From the NCBI GenBank assembly GCA_964472445.1, contig CAYYMU010000002.1:1-38263 (forward strand): a stretch of DNA of 38,263 nt, given 5' to 3'. A program made the position numbers and the translations under genes. This stretch comes from an uncultured Desulfobacteraceae bacterium. GTDB lineage: Bacteria; Desulfobacterota; Desulfobacteria; Desulfobacterales; ETH-SRB1. Positions 2,515 through 38,263 of the stretch are shown here, in pieces. Positions within the stretch are counted from its first letter, which is position 1. Every line of letters begins with the position of its first letter. Under the pieces are notes generated by a model. It made no database searches, was not told where the DNA came from, and was given only the letters and a program-made list of their open reading frames with translations.

Positions 2515-4449
2515 TCAACCCAGGGCTGTTCCAGGTTTTACCGTCCTGTCAACCGTCACTAAAGAACAACCCTTATCATCGACCGCTGCCAGAACCATTC
2601 CGTTTGAAACTATTCCCATTATTTTTGCCGGCTTTAAATTGGCAACCACGATTACCTGCTTGCCAACCAGGTCTTCAGGTTTATAGCTTGCGGCAATGCC
2701 GGCTATGAGTGTTCTCTTCTCTCCAAGATCAACCTCTAATTTAAGCAGTTTTTTTGCCCTTGGAATTGATTCAGCGCTGAGTACAATACCCACCCTGAGA
2801 TCAATTGCACCGAATGTTTCTATTGGTATTTCGGATTTTATCTCCAACAAACTGCTTGTGCCGGATGTTTCTTCCTGCGCAAAATTTTTATTGTTTTTCA
2901 TATCAACTCTTGGAAAAAGTGTTATTCCCTTTGGAAGCTGTGTGCCTGGATCAATTATCGTCCATTTTTTCAGGGTTTCGAGCTTGTTGAAATATCCATT
3001 TTTAATCAGATCCATATCCAGGCCAAGATGTTTCTGCATGAGGGCCGATGTATCCGGCATGACCGGATAAACGAGACCGGCTATTACTCCAAGCCCATTA
3101 AGAAGATTGTTGATTACAAGCTCCAGCTGTTTTTTACTGGCTTTCTTCTTTGCGAGTTCCCATGGCGCAGTAAAATCGACATATCTATTCATCTTGCCGA
3201 TTAATTCCCATATCACCACAAGTGCTTTATGAAAACCAAAGTCTTCCATTGCAAGTTCATATGCAGCAATGGTTTCAATGGCATCTGACTCAAGACCCAG
3301 ATTAAATTCGCTTTGCACTTCTGGATCAACCCCTGGAACTATGCCCTTAAAATATTTATGCACCATTGCTAAAACTCTGGAAAACAGGTTTCCCAGATCA
3401 TTGGCAAGATCCGCGTTAATTCGCCCCACCAGCCCTTTTTCGCTGAAACTGGAATCAAGCCCAAATACCATATCCCGCATTAAAAAAAACCTGAAGGCAT
3501 CAAGTCCGTATATGTTTTTGAGTTTAAGAGGATCTACAATATTGCCAAGACTTTTAGACATCTTGGTTTGATCAATATTCCAGTATCCATGAACATTCAG
3601 ATGGTTATACACCGGAATGCCTGCGGCCTTAAGCATGATAGGCCAGTATATACCATGGGGCTTGAGAATATCCTTTGCGACTATATGCTGGGTATGCGGC
3701 CAGAATTTTTTAAACAGATCCCCATCAGGATAACCAAGTGCTGAAATATAATTTAAAAGAGCATCAAACCATACATATGTAACATACTCTTTATCAAAGG
3801 GCATGGTAATTCCCCATTTAAGCCGGGTTTTTGGACGCGAGATGCAAAGATCTTCAAGAGGTTTGCTTAAAAACGACATAACTTCGTTTCTATATCTCTC
3901 TGGCCGGATAAAATCAGGATGTTTTTCAATATGATCAATAAGCCAATCCTGATACTTGCTCATCTTGAAAAAATAGTTGGATTCCTTGATCAGTTCCGGT
4001 TCAACAAGATGATCCGGGCACTTGCCGTCAACCAGCTCGCGCTCAGTCAAAAAACGTTCACATCCAAAACAGTACAGTCCTTCATACTCGCTAAAATATA
4101 TATCGCCTGAATCATAAATTTTTTGCAGTATCTGTTTTACTAAAGCAATATGAGATTCATCAGAAGTGCGTATAAAACTACTATAATTAATCTTCAGCCT
4201 GGGCCAAAGCTCTCTGTACATATTGCTTATTTTATCTACATAAGCCCTGGGGGTTATATTCTCTTTCCTTGCTGCGCGTACTATCTTGTCTCCATGTTCG
4301 TCCGTGCCGGTCAAAAAGAAAACATCAGATCCCTTCATAACATTAAACCGGCAGATAACATCGGCTGCGATGGTTGTATAGGCATGCCCAAGATGGGGCA
4401 TTGCATTTACATAATAAATAGGGGTGGTTATGTAAAAGGATTGGGTCAT
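2515..4449 (-). CDS. metG: Methionine--tRNA ligase with C-terminal tRNA-binding (EMAP/Trbp111-like) domain
   Basis: 644 aa. HLGH signature (AMPHLGHAYT), KMSKS signature (KMSKSLGN), Cys knuckle CFGCERF...CPDH, and a C-terminal IDLRVG...ANLKPAKIMG OB-fold. Its start overlaps the stop of the upstream gene by 4 nt (ATGA). Confidence 0.97.
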   Translation of the reverse strand: MTQSFYITTPIYYVNAMPHLGHAYTTIAADVICRFNVMKGSDVFFLTGTDEHGDKIVRAARKENITPRAYVDKISNMYRELWPRLKINYSSFIRTSDESHIALVKQILQKIYDSGDIYFSEYEGLYCFGCERFLTERELVDGKCPDHLVEPELIKESNYFFKMSKYQDWLIDHIEKHPDFIRPERYRNEVMSFLSKPLEDLCISRPKTRLKWGITMPFDKEYVTYVWFDALLNYISALGYPDGDLFKKFWPHTQHIVAKDILKPHGIYWPIMLKAAGIPVYNHLNVHGYWNIDQTKMSKSLGNIVDPLKLKNIYGLDAFRFFLMRDMVFGLDSSFSEKGLVGRINADLANDLGNLFSRVLAMVHKYFKGIVPGVDPEVQSEFNLGLESDAIETIAAYELAMEDFGFHKALVVIWELIGKMNRYVDFTAPWELAKKKASKKQLELVINNLLNGLGVIAGLVYPVMPDTSALMQKHLGLDMDLIKNGYFNKLETLKKWTIIDPGTQLPKGITLFPRVDMKNNKNFAQEETSGTSSLLEIKSEIPIETFGAIDLRVGIVLSAESIPRAKKLLKLEVDLGEKRTLIAGIAASYKPEDLVGKQVIVVANLKPAKIMGIVSNGMVLAAVDDKGCSLVTVDRTVKPGTALG

Positions 4450-6576: not shown

Positions 6577-6595
6577 GTATCCTCCTTTTTGAAAA

Positions 6596-6750
6596 GAGAC
6601 CTTTGCAAAACCTCCCCTTTTGCCCAATTACTGCGTCAGGCTCAAATTTTAAGCCTCGCAATACTCAATGTATTCCTACGTTTAAACCTGATTTAAAATT
6701 TGGTCGCCTTCCTTGAACTTGAGCAAAATTGAACATTTTTCAAAGGTCTC
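6596..6750 (-). repeat. Repeat family A, copy A1 (155-bp imperfect palindrome)
   Basis: Termini GAGACCTTTGCAAAA ... TTTTTCAAAGGTCTC. Core carries CTGCGTCAGG, GGAATACATTGAGTAT (reverse complement) and CCTTCCTTGAAC. Ends 20 nt upstream of the ihfB-like start codon. Confidence 0.85.
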
Positions 6751-6764
6751 GAAATAACTGCCAT

Positions 6765-6878
6765 TTGACGCATTCGTAAAAAGCTGCATTATACCGCTCT
6801 GCGGCACTTGAAATTAGAATAACTTTAAACAATCCGTCTTCAGTTGTGATGTAAATTAAAATTAGAAAATTGTTTGAG
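6765..6878 (-). repeat. BT module plus one arm of the B palindrome (partial B copy)
   Basis: TTGACGCATTCGTAAAAAGCTGCATTATACCGCTCTGCGGCACTTGAAATTAGAATAACTTTAAACAATCCGTCTTCAGTTGTGATGTAAATTAAAATTAGAAAATTGTTTGAG aligns to the reverse complement of 15375-15500. Reading on the plus strand gives TTGACG, a 16-nt spacer, then CATTAT. Confidence 0.8.
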
Positions 6879-12484: not shown

Positions 12485-12550
12485 TTAACATAAAAAGCCC
12501 CTCTATGCGCTTTGCATCACTGGAAACCAAAATAACTTTTGAGCAATCGG
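12485..12550 (-). repeat. BT module copy in the alaC-hom spacer
   Basis: TAAAAAGCCCCTCTATGCGCTTTGCATCACTGGAAACCAAAATAACTTTTGAGCAATCGG aligns to the reverse complement of 15431-15490. It lacks a good -35 hexamer. Confidence 0.75.
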
Positions 12551-15046: not shown

Positions 15047-15184
15047 GTTTACCCGCCTTTGGCGGCGCCGGAGGCGACCAGGGTTCATATACAAGGCGTA
15101 GTGTTTTTTCAGGACCGAAGGTATACATATAGTATGTCGAGGTTCTGAAAAAACACTACAACCCGCATGAGGCGGACAAGCACA
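15047..15184 (+). repeat. GC-rich module E plus 19-bp-stem hairpin plus F-like module
   Basis: 15047-15088 GTTTACCCGCCTTTGGCGGCGCCGGAGGCGACCAGGGTTCAT is 40/42 identical to 38152-38193. Hairpin: 15098-15116 GTAGTGTTTTTTCAGGACC pairs with 15141-15159 GGTTCTGAAAAAACACTAC. 15160-15184 AACCCGCATGAGGCGGACAAGCACAG is related to module F. Confidence 0.8.
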
Positions 15185-15199
15185 GTAGATGGGACTTTG

Positions 15200-15500
15200 A
15201 AATAAATCAACTGTAGTTTTTGCCGGTTATCGCAACAGTTCTAATTAAATTAAAACCAGAAAAAACTCAGGTATAACAAATCGTAAACAAAGAACGGGCC
15301 ATAATAAAAACATCAAGCATGCTAATGATTTAATCTTTTATTGATAACAATATATCAACAGGTTCTTTGCTAACGATTTTTAATACATTCAAACAGTTTT
15401 CTAATTTTAATTTAATCATAACTGAAGACTGATTGCTCAAAAGTTATTCTGGTTTCAAGTGCTGCAAAGTGGCATAGTGGAGCTTTTTACGACGCCATCA
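15200..15500 (+). repeat. Repeat family B, copy B1 (301 bp: about 230-bp imperfect palindrome plus BT tail)
   Basis: Manual alignment to 25957-26257 gives 14 substitutions, no indels (about 95 percent identity). The internal long inverted repeat is CAGTT.T.ATTAAATTAAAA.CAGAAAA ... TTTTCTAATTTTAATTTAATCATAACTG. Confidence 0.9.
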
Positions 15501-15521
15501 ACCTTTATTGTGTAATATATT

Positions 15522-17375: not shown

Positions 17376-17452
<77 letters not shown>

Positions 17453-21403: not shown

Positions 21404-21605
21404 GAGACCTTTGCAAAGCACCCCCTTTTGCCCAAGTTATGCGTCAGGTTTAAGAATAATTTTGAGTTTTTAATTTTGAATGAAGAAAAAACCATTATTA
21501 ATTTAAAATTCAACATTTAAAATTCATAATTTTTTATGTATTCCTGTGGTTGAAACCCTTGCCTTCCTTGAACTTGGACAAAATTGAGCCTTTTTCAAAG
21601 GTCTC
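21404..21605 (-). repeat. Repeat family A, copy A2 (202 bp, AT-rich central insertion)
   Basis: Same termini (GAGACCTTTGCAAAG ... TTTTTCAAAGGTCTC) and flank-core blocks (TTTTGCCCAAGTTATGCGTCAGG ; CCTTCCTTGAACTTGGACAAAATTGA). The apical region is replaced by about 90 nt of AT-rich sequence. Confidence 0.85.
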
Positions 21606-21661
21606 ACAGATAATATTAAGTTTTGTTTGTTTGAGCTGGTTTGTGGCTGAATATAGAGAAT

Positions 21662-22453
21662 ATGTATATTCACAAAGTAGAATCAAGAGATTTGCCGGAT
21701 CTTTGGTTTCAGGCAGTCCATGATATTTTCGATCATGGGAAAAGATTTACAATTGACAGAGGTTCTTATGCCGGCCAGACTCGCCTTGAATATGATTTTT
21801 TTACAGGTCATGTAAAGCATCCGGGAACACGCCCCCTTTTGCCTGATATTCCTCCGTCCTGCGGCATACCAAATCCTGTTGATGAGGAATATATCTACGG
21901 CGGCAAAGGATATACAAGATCTTATATTGAATATCTTATGACTCCATGTAAAGAAGCAGGGGAATCATATACTTATGGAGAACGACTTACCAGGGCTCCG
22001 ATTACCGGACAAAAGCTTAGTTGGTGGAAAAACGGCAATTCAGATATTATTGATAGAAGAGATGTTGACGGTAAGGCTATCTTTGAAGAAAACGGCTGTC
22101 TTTATATTAATCAGATAGAATGGATTATTAATACATATAAACAGTATGGCCAGCGCAATAATCAGATGGTGCTTCAGGTCGCCCATCCTTCTGATATTGC
22201 TTTGTTAGACCCGCCGTGTTTACGTTCAATAGACACACGAATACAGGACAACACTCTACACTTTATTATTTATTTCAGATCATGGGATCTTTGGGGGGGC
22301 TTGCCGGCAAATCTGGCTGGAATTCAAAACCTTAAAGAATATATGGCGGCAGAAATAGGTGTAAACGATGGAGAGATGCTTGTCGAAAGCAAGGGGCTTC
22401 ATCTTTACGGTTATGCAGAAGATCTTGCAAAGTTAAGATGTATGAAAGAATAA
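21662..22453 (+). CDS. Divergent thymidylate-synthase (ThyA-fold) family protein
   Basis: 263 aa from ATG 21662 (TTG 21641 is also possible). ThyA-core equivalents: DPPCLRS (catalytic Cys, compare APCH), YFRSWDLWGGLPANL (compare YQRSxDxxLGxPFN), HLY. The rest is very different from E. coli ThyA. Confidence 0.7.
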   Translation: MYIHKVESRDLPDLWFQAVHDIFDHGKRFTIDRGSYAGQTRLEYDFFTGHVKHPGTRPLLPDIPPSCGIPNPVDEEYIYGGKGYTRSYIEYLMTPCKEAGESYTYGERLTRAPITGQKLSWWKNGNSDIIDRRDVDGKAIFEENGCLYINQIEWIINTYKQYGQRNNQMVLQVAHPSDIALLDPPCLRSIDTRIQDNTLHFIIYFRSWDLWGGLPANLAGIQNLKEYMAAEIGVNDGEMLVESKGLHLYGYAEDLAKLRCMKE

Positions 22454-22455
22454 AG

Positions 22456-22775
22456 ATCCGGGTCCAGAGGGCCCGGCTTTGGTTTGCCCCTAAAAGGGGT
22501 TGTTTTACTTAAAGCGGTACAAATTAAAAGTGCCTAAAGTGAACTAAAGTGAACTAAAGTGCCTAAAGTTATGGAGTCGCTCCTGCCCGCCATCGCGAGC
22601 CATACTCAACGATCTTCGTCCTTTTGTCGTTTCGCTCAGGCGAGGCGGGCGGGTCGCTCCGCTTATTTTATATAATTGACAGAATTCCTTAACTTTAGCT
22701 CACTTCAAACTCTTGCAGCATTTCTCCAGGCAAAGCCGGATAACTCCGACTTGGCCCTGAGGACCAGGTTTTTCA
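22456..22775 (+). repeat. Composite element D, copy D1 (GC-rich 83-nt core 22577-22659)
   Basis: The core is 76/83 identical to the reverse complement of 38027-38109. Arms are built from AAAGTGCCT/AAAGTGAACT tandem units (22527-22570) and a partly complementary GCTCACTTCAAAC side. Outer hairpins are CCGGGTCCAGAGGGCCCGG (22458-22476) and TTGGCCCTGAGGACCAGG (22751-22768). Confidence 0.85.
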
Positions 22776-22789
22776 GGGTAAAATAAAGA

Positions 22790-24172
22790 TTAAAAAGAAA
22801 TAGAATTTGGAGTCCTTGGAAAAGGTATAACATCTCTTATGTTTGTTACACCTGTTAGAAACATCAGCAGGCGTTCAAAACCAAGCCCAAATCCGCTGTG
22901 AAAAACAGAGCCGTATTTCCTAGATTCAATATACCACCAATAATCCTTTTTAGATAATCCCAATTCATCCATTCTCGACTCAAGAACACTTAGCCGTTCT
23001 TCGCGCTGGCTGCCGCCAATTATTTCACCCATATTGGGAACAAGAACATCCATTGCGGCAACGGTTTCGTTGTCATCATTGACTCTCATATAAAACGGCT
23101 TTATGTTTTTAGGATAATCATAGATAATCAGAGGCTTTTTAAAATAATGTTCGGTAAGATATCGTTCATGCTCGGACTGCAGGTCATTGCCAAATTTGAC
23201 GTCATACTCAAATTTTTGTCTGGATTTACTTAAAATATCTACAGCTTCTTTGTATGAAAGCCTTGTAAAGTCAGATGATAGCAAACCGCCCAGGGTTGTC
23301 ATAAGGTTTTTATCTACATGTTTTGCAAAAAGTTCCAGATCGTCCTGGCAAGTATCTATTATATAGCCTGTCAGGTATTTTAAAAAATCTTCGCTCAAAT
23401 TCATGGCATCATTTAAATCACTAAAGGCCATTTCCGGTTCTACCATCCAGAATTCAGCTACATGCCTGCTTGTGTTTGAGTTTTCCGCCCTGAAAGTGGG
23501 GCCGAAAGTATAAACATCGCCAAGCGAAAGTGCTAACATTTCCGCTGAAAGCTGCCCTGAAACCGTCAGGTTTGTTGCAGTGCCGAAAAAATCGAGTGAA
23601 AAGTCAGTTTTTTTATCATTTTTTGGAATATTATCTAAATCCAGCGTGGTTACCTTAAACATTTCTCCAGCACCTTCGCAGTCAGAGGCAGTTAAAATCG
23701 GGGTATGAATATACTTAAAGCCTCTGTCTTTGAAAAATTTATGTATTGCAAAACACAACTCAGATCTTATGCGAAAGATAGCCCCGTATTTGTTGGTTCT
23801 GGGCCTTAAATGGGCAACAGTTCTTAAAAACTCATCACTGTGACGTTTTTTTTGCAGCGGGAAGGTGTCAGGGGCAAGGTCAAGTATTTCCAGACCATCT
23901 GCTTTCATCTCCCATTTCTGTCCTTTTCCCTGCGATTCTATTAGTGAGCCAATTACACTTACTGCCGATCCAGTTGAAATCTTTGTTATTTCTTCATAGT
24001 TGGCAAGGGAGCTCTCTGCAATTACCTGCATGTTTTTAAGGCTTGACCCGTCATTTATTTCTAAAAAGGAAAAACCCTTTGAATCACGCCTGGTTCTGAC
24101 CCATCCCATTACAATTACATTGTCCATGGGTTTGTTTGACTGTAAAAGATGTAATATTCTGATTCGCTTCAT
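22790..24172 (-). CDS. asnS: Asparagine--tRNA ligase
   Basis: 460 aa. N-terminal OB domain (GWVRTRRDSKGFSFLEINDGS), class II motifs (FRAENSNTSRH, GGSQRE, GFGLGFERL) and a PRTP...F C-terminus. Confidence 0.95.
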   Translation of the reverse strand: MKRIRILHLLQSNKPMDNVIVMGWVRTRRDSKGFSFLEINDGSSLKNMQVIAESSLANYEEITKISTGSAVSVIGSLIESQGKGQKWEMKADGLEILDLAPDTFPLQKKRHSDEFLRTVAHLRPRTNKYGAIFRIRSELCFAIHKFFKDRGFKYIHTPILTASDCEGAGEMFKVTTLDLDNIPKNDKKTDFSLDFFGTATNLTVSGQLSAEMLALSLGDVYTFGPTFRAENSNTSRHVAEFWMVEPEMAFSDLNDAMNLSEDFLKYLTGYIIDTCQDDLELFAKHVDKNLMTTLGGLLSSDFTRLSYKEAVDILSKSRQKFEYDVKFGNDLQSEHERYLTEHYFKKPLIIYDYPKNIKPFYMRVNDDNETVAAMDVLVPNMGEIIGGSQREERLSVLESRMDELGLSKKDYWWYIESRKYGSVFHSGFGLGFERLLMFLTGVTNIRDVIPFPRTPNSISF

Positions 24173-24208
24173 TCTGTTGGGTACTCTCCATATTAATAAT
24201 ATTTTTTA

Positions 24209-24347
24209 CCACCAAGCTTACGGAGAACACAGAGAAAATTTTTTTAAAAATCACTTTTAGTGGCCGTTCCTGCCTGTGTTACCCATAAAGGCGGACAAGT
24301 CTGTGGCTGAATGATTATTTTTTATATTCTTAGTGTGCTTTGTGGTG
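24209..24347 (-). repeat. Module F copy bracketed by an imperfect inverted repeat (asnS upstream region)
   Basis: The reverse complement of 24262-24319 (AATAATCATTCAGCCACAGACTTGTCCGCCTTTATGGGTAACACAGGCAGG) aligns to 37742-37794. Flanks are CCACCAAGCTTACGGAGAACACAGAGAA / TTCTTAGTGTGCTTTGTGGTG. Confidence 0.7.
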
Positions 24348-24367
24348 AAGATTTATCACTTTGTTTT

Positions 24368-25756
24368 TTATAGTTTAACGGTGATATAATAGCTCTGATC
24401 GGCGCGTTGCAGCAGAATAACCATTGATTTTTTATTGCGGTATTTTACGACTGCTTTTTCAAAATCTTTTACACTATCTGTTTTTATTTCATCAATCTGC
24501 CGTATTATATCACCAGTTTTTACTCCAATACGCGCGAGATCCGATTGACGGCTTATTGCTGAAATTATCACTCCTTTTTTTGCAACAGTTTTATATTTAA
24601 GGCGTTTTTTTATGGACAAATCTTCAGTTTTTACTCCAAGAAGCCTGAATGCAAGTTCTCTGGCCATCTTTTCAGGAAATGTTGCCGCCTTTGTTGCAAC
24701 AGTAATTTCTTTATTGTTTCTCCAAAGCTTTATTTTTATCAGATTCCCCTTGGCATAATTTTTCATGGCAGTATTGTATAGTTCAACCGACGGGGTCTTT
24801 CGAGCGCCAACAGCCAGAATTATATCTCCATCACGGATACCGGCTTTGTAGCCAGGCCCGCCAATTGTGACCTCCTTTACAAGCACGCCTCTGCTTTCAG
24901 GAATTTTCATGTATTGGGCAAGTTTTTTATCAAGAGTCTGAACGTTTACTCCTATCCAGATCTGGACAACCTCTCCATATTGAATAAGGTCTGATATAAT
25001 TCTTTTTGCCTTGTTGATAGGTATTGCAAAGCCTATTCCCTGGGCTTTTGCATAAATGGCGGTATTAATACCGATAAGTTCGCCGTTTATATTCAGGAGC
25101 GCACCTCCACTGTTGCCTGGATTAATAGAGGCATCTAACTGTATAAAATCATGATAAACAGCATTATCCGTTCTGATGCTGCGGTTTACTGCGCTTATAA
25201 TCCCTGTGGTTACTGTGTTGGAAAATCCGAAAGGATTGCCTATGGCTATAATTGTTTCTCCTATCATAAGGTCGTCGGAATTGCCCATTTCAACGGCAGG
25301 AAGAGGCTTTTTTGATGATATTCGCAGTACAGCCAGATCAGAATCAGGATCGGCGCCTATAATCTGGGCATCAAACTTGCGTTCGTCATTTAAAACAACG
25401 GTTATGGTTGTGCTTTTTGCAAGCACATGTGCATTGGTTAGAATAAGACCCCTTTTGCCATCAATAATAACACCTGAACCAAGACTGGTTTTTTTGTAGC
25501 GCTGTTCAACGCCCGGATCAAAAAAATCTTTGAAAAAAGAATCAAAACGCGGATCAATACGGAAGCGGGAAAACGGATTGGCACGTCGACGAACTTCATA
25601 TTCTGAATTTATATTCACAACCGCAGGGCTTACTTTGCTAACAGCCCTGACAACAGGGTTTTTCCGTTCATATTCAGCTGCAGGGCTATTGGATGTAAGT
25701 ATGGTTATTGCAAAAAAGGCTATAATTAAATGGATATATATTTTATGTGTTTGCAT
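24368..25756 (-). CDS. htrA: HtrA/DegP/DegQ-family periplasmic serine endoprotease with two PDZ domains
   Basis: 462 aa. Signal peptide, catalytic triad context (TNAHV, DLAVL, GNSGGAL), and two PDZ-like C-terminal regions. Confidence 0.93.
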   Translation of the reverse strand: MQTHKIYIHLIIAFFAITILTSNSPAAEYERKNPVVRAVSKVSPAVVNINSEYEVRRRANPFSRFRIDPRFDSFFKDFFDPGVEQRYKKTSLGSGVIIDGKRGLILTNAHVLAKSTTITVVLNDERKFDAQIIGADPDSDLAVLRISSKKPLPAVEMGNSDDLMIGETIIAIGNPFGFSNTVTTGIISAVNRSIRTDNAVYHDFIQLDASINPGNSGGALLNINGELIGINTAIYAKAQGIGFAIPINKAKRIISDLIQYGEVVQIWIGVNVQTLDKKLAQYMKIPESRGVLVKEVTIGGPGYKAGIRDGDIILAVGARKTPSVELYNTAMKNYAKGNLIKIKLWRNNKEITVATKAATFPEKMARELAFRLLGVKTEDLSIKKRLKYKTVAKKGVIISAISRQSDLARIGVKTGDIIRQIDEIKTDSVKDFEKAVVKYRNKKSMVILLQRADQSYYITVKL

Positions 25757-25828: not shown

Positions 25829-25956
25829 CTCAAACAGCTTGAAATTTTAACGCCAGGCTCAATCTGACCGGCCAAAAACTGATTATTTTCCTTACCGGGA
25901 AGCTTTAGCTTCAATCTTTTTCCAAAACTGCTCAATGTCGCTTGCAAATGATTTTT

Positions 25957-26257
25957 AAATAACTCAACTGTAGTTTTTGCCAGTTATCGCAACAGTTATG
26001 ATTAAATTAAAATCAGAAAAAACTCATGTATAACAAATCGTAAACAAAGAACAGGCCATAATAAAAACAGCAATTGTGCTAATGATTTAATCTTTTATTA
26101 ATAACAATATATCAACAGGTTCTTTGCTAACGATTTTTAATACATTCAAACAGTTTTCTAATTTTAATTTAATCATAACTGAAGACTGATTGCTCAAAAG
26201 TTATTCTGGTTTCAAGTGCTGCAAAGCGGCATAGTGGGGCTTTTTACGACGCCATCA
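25957..26257 (+). repeat. Repeat family B, copy B2
   Basis: Direct repeat of B1, 10.4 kb away in the same orientation. Its outer palindrome arms are more perfect than those of B1. Confidence 0.9.
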
Positions 26258-26292
26258 TATTTGTTAGTAAAACAATTAGGCTCTTCTCCAAT

Positions 26293-29444: not shown

Positions 29445-29585
29445 GAGGCTGTCCGAGAATGAGAAATTTTTTGCAAGGTCAAGGAAAACGAAGATTTTAA
29501 CCGCAGGAATACATTGAGTATTTTGAGGATTAAAATCTGAGACTGACGCAGAGATTGCGGGAAATAGCCATTCTCGGACAGCCTC
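29445..29585 (+). repeat. Repeat family A, copy A4 (variant closing stem)
   Basis: Core homologous to A3 (CAAGGAAAACGAAGATTTTAACCGCAGGAATACATTGAGTATTTTGAGGATTAAAATCTGAGACTGACGCAGAGATTGCGGG). It is closed by a different, perfect 17-bp inverted repeat GAGGCTGTCCGAGAATG / CATTCTCGGACAGCCTC. Confidence 0.85.
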
Positions 29586-29714
29586 TTAGTGTTTTATAAA
29601 AGGTTGCGTTAGCTTGTAAATTCTTAAAAATGCTGATTTTTTGATGCTTGACTTTATATTTGACTTGTGATTATTTTAGAAGTTTAAAAATAATTGATCA
29701 GGCATTTTTGCTGC

Positions 29715-29731
29715 GAGACCGTAGAAAAATG
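29715..29731 (+). repeat. Solo copy of a family-A terminus
   Basis: GAGACCGTAGAAAAATG, compared with GAGACCGTTGAAAAATG at 29774-29790. Confidence 0.6.
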
Positions 29732-29773
29732 TTTTCTGCTAAAAGCGGTATTAAGCTTTATAATGGATTCAGC

Positions 29774-29915
29774 GAGACCGTTGAAAAATGCTCAATTTTG
29801 TTTAAGTTCAAGGAAGGCGAGGATTTCAACCACAGGAATATATTGAATATTTCGAGGATTGAAATTTGAGCCTGACGCAGAAATTGGGCAAAAGGGGGTG
29901 TTTTGCAAAGGTCTC
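29774..29915 (+). repeat. Repeat family A, copy A3 (142 bp)
   Basis: GAGACCGTTGAAAAATG ... TGTTTTGCAAAGGTCTC. Core is CAAGGAAGGCGAGGATTTCAACCACAGGAATATATTGAATATTTCGAGGATTGAAATTTGAGCCTGACGCAGAAATTGGGC. Ends 52 nt upstream of rpmH. Confidence 0.85.
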
Positions 29916-29967
29916 TCAGCACAAGGCAGAAGGTCTCAAGAAATATATAATTTAGGGGATATGTAAC

Positions 29968-37813: not shown

Positions 37814-37848
37814 AAGGCACAGAGGGGCAAAGGCACAGAGGGGCAAAG
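37814..37848. repeat. 16-nt tandem repeat, 2.2 units
   Basis: AAGGCACAGAGGGGCA occurs twice, followed by AAG. Confidence 0.9.
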
Positions 37849-37884
37849 ATTTTTGCCAGACCTGCAAATCTCTATATGTTTTTA

Positions 37885-38256
37885 TTGTGTCCTGAAAAAC
37901 CTGGTCCTTTGGGCCATGTCAGAGATAGATGGCTTTGCCTTGGAGTTTTGTGTTTAAAAAAGGAACGTCGAACATCGAACGTCGAATTAAGGTACGCCTT
38001 CGGCGTTTCAATTTTATTAAAAAAATGAGCGACCCGCCCGCCTCGCCTGAGCGAGATAACAAAAGAACGAAGAGCATTGAGTATGTCTCGCGATGGCGGG
38101 CAGGAGCGATATCCACATTCAATGTTCTATGTTGAGCGTTCGATGTTCGATGTTTACCCGCCTTCGGCGGCGCCAGAGGCGACCAGGGTTCATCTTTTTC
38201 ATGCAAAGCAAATCCCCTCTGGGGATAGCCAAAGCCTGGTCCTCTGGGCCAGGATT
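37885..38256 (-). repeat. Composite element D, copy D2 (core 38027-38109)
   Basis: Same core and same outer flanks (CCTGAAAAACCTGGTCCTTTGGGCCA..GGCTTTGCCTTGGAG ; CCAAAGCCTGGTCCTCTGGGCCAGG). The arms are built from unrelated heptamer repeats GAACGTC/GAACATC (37964-37987) and their complement (38137-38154). An E module is inserted at 38152-38193. Confidence 0.85.
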
Positions 38257-38263
38257 CTTTACT

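Follow-up and report, generated by a model that had tools for sequence, protein, structure and literature searches.

Element D occupies positions 22451-22787 of a 38,263-nt stretch of DNA (the window; contig CAYYMU010000002.1 of assembly GCA_964472445.1) from an uncultured Desulfobacteraceae bacterium. A second copy lies on the minus strand near the end of the window. Element D most probably represents nested, non-autonomous palindromic DNA repeats resembling MITEs (miniature transposable elements with inverted repeats) and REPINs, which are inverted pairs of repetitive extragenic palindromes (REPs), and not a dedicated RNA gene. The scaffold is a separate palindromic repeat of ~330 nt with hairpin-bearing inverted ends, tandem arms and the centre AATTGRYAGAATDCCTTMA. 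The GC-rich core within it is a 37-45-nt GC hairpin, CCTGCCCGCC-ATCGC...GCGA-GGCGGGCGGG, enlarged by a 32-nt insert in its apex. The features of the two copies were as follows.

22451-22787, plus strand: whole composite, copy 1, ~337 nt, from TAAAGATCC... to ...CAGGGTAAAATAAA; an alignment of nine copies ends exactly here
22458-22500, plus strand: 5' outer module, with hairpin CCGGGTCCAGAGGGCCCGG, then CTTTGGTTTG, a small hairpin GCCCCTAAAAGGGGT and a T-rich tail
22527-22572, plus strand: 5' arm of tandem 9-10-nt units CTAAAGTGAA/CTAAAGTGCC, complementary to the 3' arm
22582-22653, plus strand: mini-hairpin, long form (72 nt), between scaffold TCGCT (22577-22581) and TCGCTC (22654-22659)
22602-22633, plus strand: 32-nt apex insert ATACTCAACGATCTTCGTCCTTTTGTCGTTTC, absent from the 37-45-nt short forms; it makes the 40-nt form into the 83-nt core
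22660-22694, plus strand: A/T-rich conserved centre, including AATTGACAGAATTCCTTAA (22674-22692), recognized by recurrence of the motif
22689-22716, plus strand: 3' arm CTTTAGCTCACTTCAAACTC, complementary to the 5' arm
22728-22787, plus strand: 3' outer module, with CCAGGCAAAGCC..., hairpin CTTGGCCCTGAGGACCAGG, TTTTT and CAGGGTAAAATAAA; kept in all full-length copies
37881-38261, minus strand: whole composite, copy 2, with CGAAC-type arms, placed by pairwise alignment; it nearly reaches the window end
38033-38104, minus strand: mini-hairpin, long form, copy 2, placed by family comparison and inverted-repeat analysis
38112-38154, minus strand: copy-2 5' arm of tandem heptamers (CATCGAA/CGCTCAA...), period 7 at 38118-38154 by Tandem Repeats Finder (TRF), complementary to 37963-37986
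37963-37986, minus strand: copy-2 3' arm of tandem heptamers (TTCGACG...), TRF period 7
38152-38193, minus strand: nested 42-nt GC-rich hairpin module CCCTGGTCGCCTCTGGCGCCGCCGAAGGCGGGTAAAC in the copy-2 5' arm, with a second copy at 15047-15088 (95%)
37995-38005, minus strand: 11-nt mini-palindrome CGCCGAAGGCG, splitting the copy-2 central motif into AATTGAAA and TACCTTAA

The original prediction described a composite, non-coding palindrome on several levels that no gene explains, and this description was borne out. The core at 22577-22659 aligned with the reverse complement of 38027-38109 over 83 nt (76/83, 92%). The proposed helix CCTGCCCGCC/GGCGGGCGGG is present between 22582-22591 and 22644-22653, with nine of its ten positions paired plus one T.G. 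An AG bulge is also present in the hairpin helix. The outer flanks are kept in both copies, the 3' flank (22728-22787 against 37881-37940) at 82% and the 5' flank at about 80%. The 5' outer module repeats the 3' outer module in inverted orientation, 22453-22473 pairing with 22753-22773 in the manner of a terminal inverted repeat. Copy 1 fills the entire gap between two convergent genes, a thyA-like gene at 21641-22453 (plus strand) and an Asn/Asp-tRNA synthetase gene at 22790-24172 (minus strand), and starts with the three bases that form the stop codon of the thyA-like gene upstream. The element is far beyond chance, as source-population contigs end within it and over 100 additional copies were detected.

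The hairpin is a family of its own. The exact 20-mer GCTCAGGCGAGGCGGGCGGG, which forms the 3' half of the hairpin, was scanned across one genome per species and occurred in at least 120 stretches of these species-representative genomes, nearly all of them metagenome-assembled genomes (MAGs) of Desulfobacterota. Among the matches listed, the nearest relatives of the element were in Desulfobacteraceae and Desulfobacterales MAGs, the partner half CCTGCCCGCCATCGC was located just upstream in 118 copies, and copies with both halves fell into length classes of 37, 39, 40, 45 and 72 nt; a few matches in high-GC genomes had no partner half and appeared to be due to chance. Carriers of the hairpin include the complete MAG chromosomes CP070673, CP070694 and CP070843. 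Long forms of 72 nt were also identified in L028 and L123, and derived versions in L095 and L110 (L-numbers denote loci or contigs from other genomes or metagenomes that were compared with the window). Other apices contained diverged copies of the hairpin, other small GC hairpins, or pieces of ~110 nt starting with CCTGCCCGCAATGCC and ending with GCATGGCAGGCGGG. One locus carried a head-to-tail array of hairpins. The hairpin was also found inside other palindromic repeats, between GTCATTGCGA and GCGAAGCAATC, between CCCCTA and CGTAGGGG, and between GGGAGGGT.. and GTGGGGGTGA. Both DNA strands of the mini-hairpin fold about equally well.

Scaffold and hairpin occur without each other. Scaffolds with the same arms and centre and no hairpin were identified in L078 (...GGTGTCGCT joined to ATGCTCCG...) and L096 (...GGTATCGCT joined to TTGCTCTATC...), and L192 (...GGATATCGCT joined to TCGCTCATTT...) is the exact empty form of copy 2. 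Many DNA contigs from the source lakes and many sediment metatranscriptome contigs contained joints from 22581 to 22655, which skip exactly the 72-nt hairpin. Joints from 22601 to 22633 and from 22596 to 22630 in source DNA skip the 32-nt insert alone. A short hairpin lacking this insert was found within the same scaffold, and the source metagenomes contain scaffolds in all three states, empty, short-hairpin and long-hairpin. Depths were summed over contigs in three source metagenomes and are rough, as related species are possibly included; they were 11-26x for the single-copy flanks, 1100-2580x for the arms and centre, 320-1250x for the hairpin halves (20-47x single copy), 160-1100x for the outer modules and 112-229x for the 32-nt insert (about 10x single copy). 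The 5' outer module reached ~40x the depth of the single-copy flanks in source DNA. Module copy numbers are ~10-fold apart, which identifies the modules as independent repeats combined as a mosaic.

The composite is dispersed with fixed ends. Nine full-length composites of the copy-1 type were aligned from six genomic contexts, and similarity was lost at the same two ends in each. TAAA is present at both composite ends in all six contexts. A scan of metagenomes for the long form, using a pattern specific for the 32-nt insert, recovered at least 117 stretches in at least 109 distinct contexts, nearly all within the scaffold. The centre motif recurs in most of the 109 metagenome contexts and in L028, L033, L036, L065, L078, L095, L096, L110, L117 and L123. 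Presence/absence polymorphism and occurrence at unrelated loci were observed for the modules in comparisons of paralogous copies. No element-free allele of the copy-1 locus was seen among the source-lake DNA contigs.

The arms had been described as self-complementary at each locus and specific to it. The first part holds. In copy 1, 22528-22553 pairs with 22689-22714 and 22547-22560 with 22692-22705, and TRF reported 3.7 copies of a period-10 repeat at 22534-22569 in the 5' arm. In copy 2, 37964-37981 pairs with 38137-38154 at 94%. The arms differ between the two loci but are not locus-specific, as at least three classes are common to many copies and species. The units of these classes are heptamers of the CGAAC type, heptamers of the ATTGA type and 9-10-mers of the CTAAAGTG type. 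Class agreed between the 5' and 3' arms in 48, 12 and at least three copies, and two copies were truly discordant. In the discordant copies, L173 and L192, the shared core joins a CGAAC-type 5' arm to a 3' arm of ATTGA or CTTTAG type; these copies may reflect recombination between subfamilies or chimeras assembled across the 72-nt repeat. Exactly one arm unit separated contigs of the same locus, L004 and L212 having one unit fewer. The complementarity of the arms is real but is equally expected of inverted-repeat mobile DNA.

Members of the copy-2 subfamily were also found in L141, L154, L202, L204, L216 and L223. The 42-nt module (GTTTACCCGCCTTYGGCGGCGCCRGAGGCGACCAGGGTTCAT) at 15047-15088 and 38152-38193 interrupts the copy-2 5' arm and is absent from the sister copies L141 and L223; it looks like another mini-insertion in the style of the main hairpin. 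Just outside copy 2, at 37814-37848, is a perfect tandem repeat of a 16-nt unit, AAGGCACAGAGGGGCA, in 2.2 copies. The same motif, GGCACAGAGGGGCAAAG, is inverted on the other side of the element in other contigs, namely L140, L141, L154, L192, L216 and L223, which suggests yet another enclosing layer.

The mini-hairpin showed no orientation preference. Relative to tandem flanking genes, 20 copies were on the same strand and 20 on the opposite strand among the matches listed, with open reading frames (ORFs) crudely called; 12 further copies were between convergent genes and 13 between divergent genes. Target duplication above a shuffled-partner control was not found around the mini-hairpin across the family among the matches listed. 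The only flank positions with a preference were -1 (purine, R) and +1 (pyrimidine, Y). Complementary flank runs of at least 12 nt were present in 20% of copies compared to 2% in the control, because the hairpin repeatedly occupies the centre of other palindromic repeats. The TCGCT(C) direct repeat around the hairpin in element D was considered as a target duplication and rejected. Empty scaffolds already read TCGCT followed by TCGCTC, or TCGCT-N-CGCTCC, so these motifs are scaffold sequence.

Some targets lie within genes. Five decayed IS200-like Y1_Tnp transposase genes (L061, L109, L115, L116 and L125) carry the hairpin in their 5' coding end at the same codon (~9, between ..ARLDA and P..), and the five genes differ in sequence. 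In-frame hairpins were identified at L065:2163-2235 (72 nt), L120:5333-5372 (39 nt) and L039:4389-4428 (39 nt). L065 and L120 encode hybrid histidine kinases in which the hairpin is located in the linker between the HATPase_c and receiver domains, and its first bases overlap the conserved ..YLPA.. codons. In the MptE-like/TPR protein of L039 the hairpin is within a low-complexity linker.

The favoured explanation has three layers. The first is the ~330-nt scaffold, which is dispersed as a unit into intergenic A/T-rich sites. The second is the 37-45-nt hairpin, which would have entered the scaffold's apical loop at the junction of TCGCT with TCGCTC and with no target duplication. The third layer comprises the 32-nt piece in the hairpin apex, together with the smaller GC palindromes in the copy-2 arm and centre. 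The hairpin may move as folded single-stranded DNA, by a route like that of the HUH tyrosine transposases of the IS200/IS605 and RAYT (REP-associated tyrosine transposase) types or by another structure-guided route, and it would prefer the loops or centres of existing palindromes. The arms could stay complementary because mobilization needs matching ends, with slippage and intramolecular conversion homogenizing them; selection on an RNA would not be required. Between convergent genes the long hairpin and its terminator-like ends probably act as a transcription stop or stabilize 3' ends.

Several observations weigh against this account of nested mobile repeats. No autonomous element bounded by hairpin halves was found in the ~1.7 Mb of loci examined in total, and no cognate transposase was found. 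The sole intact Y1_Tnp gene seen, at L021:5555-6562 (minus strand), encodes 335 aa with a C-terminal DnaA_C-like helix-turn-helix; it is flanked by its own inverted repeat GGGGACGTCCGTAAATAAATAAGTAAC and not by the hairpin or the outer modules, and it scored 67.6 against a cut-off of 80 for the NCBIfam RAYT family (NF047646). Mobility is deduced by comparing empty with filled copies that are paralogous rather than orthologous, and the TAAA at the composite ends may belong to the element itself instead of being a duplicated target. Across orders the 37-45-nt hairpin hardly varies, which is unusual for REPs. The same 72-nt long form is present at the same site in all three arm classes, which needs site-specific insertion, conversion between copies or fast turnover of the arms. 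Lastly, the modules occur in metatranscriptome contigs, so that transcription or a role at the RNA level is possible. Several loci carry multiple fragments of Y1 genes. The Y1/RAYT enzymes were rejected as cognate to the hairpin; the intact gene has other flanking repeats and the hairpin-bearing genes are decayed, which marks the latter as insertion targets. Plasmid and phage collections gave no match.

A more far-reaching form of the mobile-repeat reading is possible, though well short of probable. The hairpin would be an undescribed, phylum-wide and ultra-small mobile DNA, and the scaffold of element D a second new family. Insertion would proceed as a folded strand into the loops or centres of palindromes, including the apex of the hairpin itself and the loop of the D scaffold, with no target duplication and with an HUH/Y1 enzyme acting in trans. 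Further targets would be the fixed codon of Y1 transposases and the inter-domain linkers of histidine kinases, and the long hairpin of element D might be transcribed and processed as double-stranded RNA. No description of the hairpin was found in the searchable literature, in which matches to the sequence string were only unrelated eukaryotic primers.

It is doubtful that element D is kept by the host as a cis-acting terminator or protector of mRNA 3' ends and was spread by selection. Such a role has been proposed for the REP/BIME elements of E. coli. Copy 1 begins at the stop codon of the upstream gene and opens with a module in which an 8-bp GC hairpin precedes a T-rich tail. Five terminator-like sites were predicted where 0.7 were expected, and the composite is rare between divergent genes (4/51). 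However, the terminator-like sites are all on one strand of the element, which occurs in both orientations to its neighbours. The mini-hairpin has no T tail and was as common between divergent as between convergent genes among the matches listed (13 and 12), and it is also found in frame in coding regions and in decayed transposase genes. The absence of a consistent orientation bias argues against a terminator or a small RNA as the primary function, and termination would leave the nesting and the unequal copy numbers unexplained. As a secondary, exapted effect it is compatible with mobile repeats.

The 5' outer hairpin module was very deep in an estuary metatranscriptome, which fits a terminator. 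In this dataset (run X25) the sequence corresponding to window positions 22448-22495, CCGGGTCCAGAGGGCCCGGCTTTGG with a CCCC-N-GGGG hairpin, had a summed depth of 3000-4000, far above the other modules. Highly expressed transcripts of related bacteria may commonly carry the 5' outer module as a hairpin at their 3' ends.

The original prediction itself implied a discrete structured RNA, with a functional GC core and variable arms covarying around it as a closing stem. A family of such non-coding RNA genes is unlikely. Both whole copies do fold better than shuffled sequence (z -3.8 to -5.8), the arms are unlike in sequence yet pair within each of three classes, and the T.G pair and AG bulge make the two strands unequal. 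Terminator-like hairpins are present at the element ends and the modules occur in metatranscriptome contigs. These contigs say nothing about strand or transcript ends and could contain DNA, and intergenic repeats undergo co-transcription in any case. The opposite strand of the whole element folds equally well or better. No match to Rfam 15 was obtained; at permissive E-values the two copies gave nothing but sub-threshold chance hits, the best being htlv_FSE (22.8 bits, where the gathering score is 45), and the only feature of the window to pass its gathering score was a tRNA-Met at 17376-17449. No sigma-70-like promoter site was detected in either copy. The core is dispensable to the scaffold and the scaffold to the core, and the ~10-fold divergence of module copy numbers likewise speaks against one RNA gene. 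The hairpin is evenly split between orientations among the matches listed, and the composite was antisense to its tandem neighbours in 25 cases and sense in 12.

Substitutions in the core stems show no preference for pairing. In 56 distinct long cores the stems are near-invariant and changes are one-sided, with ~16 keeping a wobble pair and ~14 breaking a pair. Pair 24-54 switches between C-G and A-T, with 16 C-T intermediates. An inner stem, AACGA/UCGUU, had been proposed and is not conserved across these cores; it exists in the copy-1 subfamily only, and the family consensus AATGC...TTGGC is unpaired there. Many further copies with substitutions indifferent to the helices had been named as grounds for rejecting the RNA, and this is what the core shows. 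With independent modules, mixed orientation and no promoter-like site as well, a covarying RNA is not supported.

It is very improbable that the arm units and centre are iteron-like protein-binding sites, forming an architectural or replication/partition site in which the GC hairpin is incidental. The arms are arrays of short units inverted around a conserved A/T-rich centre, and the window lies in the origin-proximal dnaN-gyrB region. In Tn7, Mu and Ac/Ds, the transposase is known to bind arrays of repeated sites located subterminally. Element D, however, is scattered over unrelated loci, with tens to more than 100 copies for each genome equivalent. Three unrelated unit sequences would demand three proteins, unit number varies among contigs of one locus, and the element has no linked gene for a candidate protein.

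Next to no probability remains for a small protein encoded by the core (..SLLPAIA[S/R]HTQ..AQARRAGRS..): short ORFs in the same frame cross it in both copies (22559-22675, plus strand, 38 aa; 38017-38118, minus strand, 33 aa), but five of the seven nucleotide differences alter an amino acid, the frame is shifted in family members measuring 37, 40 and 58 nt, the start codons are unlike and not conserved, and the sequence is present in both orientations to genes. All ORFs in element D are short and unconserved. The earlier statement that ORFs cross the core in different frames is true only for a 95-aa ORF, the short ORF being in the same frame in both copies.

Element D was compared to known repeat systems. 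REPINs are inverted REP pairs whose spacer keeps its capacity to form a hairpin through compensatory changes, and one may insert into another or beside it (PMC3116915). Movement as a folded single strand has been proposed for REPINs and for the IS200/IS605 family (PMC3116915). Element D is likewise repetitive, extragenic and palindromic, with an inverted pair and a spacer forming a hairpin. With REPs and REPINs it has in common a copy number of tens to hundreds, palindromes that are short, GC-rich and extragenic, the lack of a classical target duplication, and Y1_Tnp-type genes and remnants in the carrier genomes. In contrast to REPINs, no RAYT gene flanked by the hairpin or outer modules was found, and the ~330-nt scaffold with tandem-repeat arms is far longer than a typical REPIN. 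REPs are lineage-specific while this hairpin is near-identical across orders, and RAYTs are single-copy while the Y1 genes here look multi-copy, decaying and IS-like. The RAYT link was sought where possible and not found, and element D was therefore not classed as a REPIN. REPs also have a conserved GTAG-like 5' tetranucleotide, which the hairpin lacks.

Bacterial MITEs include Correia/NEMIS of Neisseria, ERIC/IRU, RUP and BOX. As MITEs are generally described, element D resembles them in being a non-coding intergenic palindrome of 100-350 nt with inverted ends, dispersed with fixed boundaries beside a TA-rich target; it is also modular and mosaic like BOX, and such elements may be co-transcribed and affect termination or mRNA stability. 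Terminal inverted repeats and a lack of coding capacity, by which MITEs are recognized, are both present. Unlike MITEs, the inverted ends bear hairpins of their own, the tandem-unit arms vary by subfamily, and the search for a parent insertion sequence whose ends match found none. Element D was accordingly not classed as an IS-derived MITE. A search for literature on MITE or REP elements of Desulfobacter returned nothing relevant.

Other systems are similar in single traits. Small dispersed repeats (SDRs) were reportedly described by Elhai et al. in 2008 from Nostoc and other cyanobacteria. SDRs are tens of nt long, some are palindromic, and they are embedded in larger repeats and in each other, in genomes that also contain tandem heptamers (STRR). 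SDRs are like element D in being tiny nested repeats; phylum and sequences differ. Rickettsia palindromic elements (RPE) are 100-150 nt long and lie in frame in protein genes, a tolerance comparable to that of the L065 and L120 histidine kinases, with unrelated sequences. The GC clusters of yeast mitochondria are organellar and mobile with characteristic target duplications; they are also GC-rich palindromes that invade an A/T-richer genome, again with unrelated sequences. Integron attC sites are imperfect palindromes used as folded single strands with extrahelical bases, comparable to the AG bulge and T.G pair of the hairpin. Unlike attC, the hairpin is not at the 3' ends of cassettes, occurs in both orientations and lies inside other repeats. 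An attC origin was rejected as the R''/R' sites (RYYYAAC / GTTRRRY) are absent from the hairpin ends CCTGCCCGCC...GGCGGGCGGG and their flanks. Dif sites, CRISPR repeats and domain V of group II introns were dropped, as their defining motifs are absent.

Nested palindromes of this kind break metagenome assemblies, create spurious ORFs and can mimic covarying RNA structures. Recognizing them therefore prevents false calls of non-coding RNAs and genes in Desulfobacterota MAGs. For the question of how bacterial mobile elements of the smallest size move, and by which enzyme, a near-invariant hairpin of 37-45 nt common to many sulfate reducers is a tractable case. The tandem-repeat arms allow a natural test of what keeps palindrome arms complementary when no RNA is under selection.

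The window is origin-proximal chromosome encoding dnaN, gyrB, yidC, rsmD and one tRNA-Met, with a G+C content of 28-44%. GC skew is negative before ~11 kb and positive after it; with dnaN-gyrB at 17.8-21.4 kb, this places the replication origin probably within the window. The gene at 21641-22453 had a weak partial match to thymidylate synthase (39.8 bits, residues 152-258/270) and its function is uncertain. Salt-lake metagenome contigs encode an identical Asn/Asp-tRNA synthetase (460 aa). Element D is the endpoint of three of the six contigs with the neighbouring synthetase gene. When L001-L006 were compared to window positions 21641-25756 the synthetase was the same and the neighbours diverged beyond the repeats. 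L004 has a Usp gene in place of the thyA-like gene, and the upstream genes are different again in L001, L002 and L005. These differences are either real rearrangements at the repeats or assembly breaks.

The genome is unusually rich in intergenic repeats, and the window contains other families unrelated to element D. These include a 300-nt pair with 95% identity, a GAGACCTTTGCAAA... family in both orientations and a AAAGTTATTCTGGTTTCAAGTGC... family, at 15193-15492 and 25950-26249; 6582-6840, 21404-21610 and 29465-29929; and 76-128, 12508-12548, 15431-15501 and 26188-26260.

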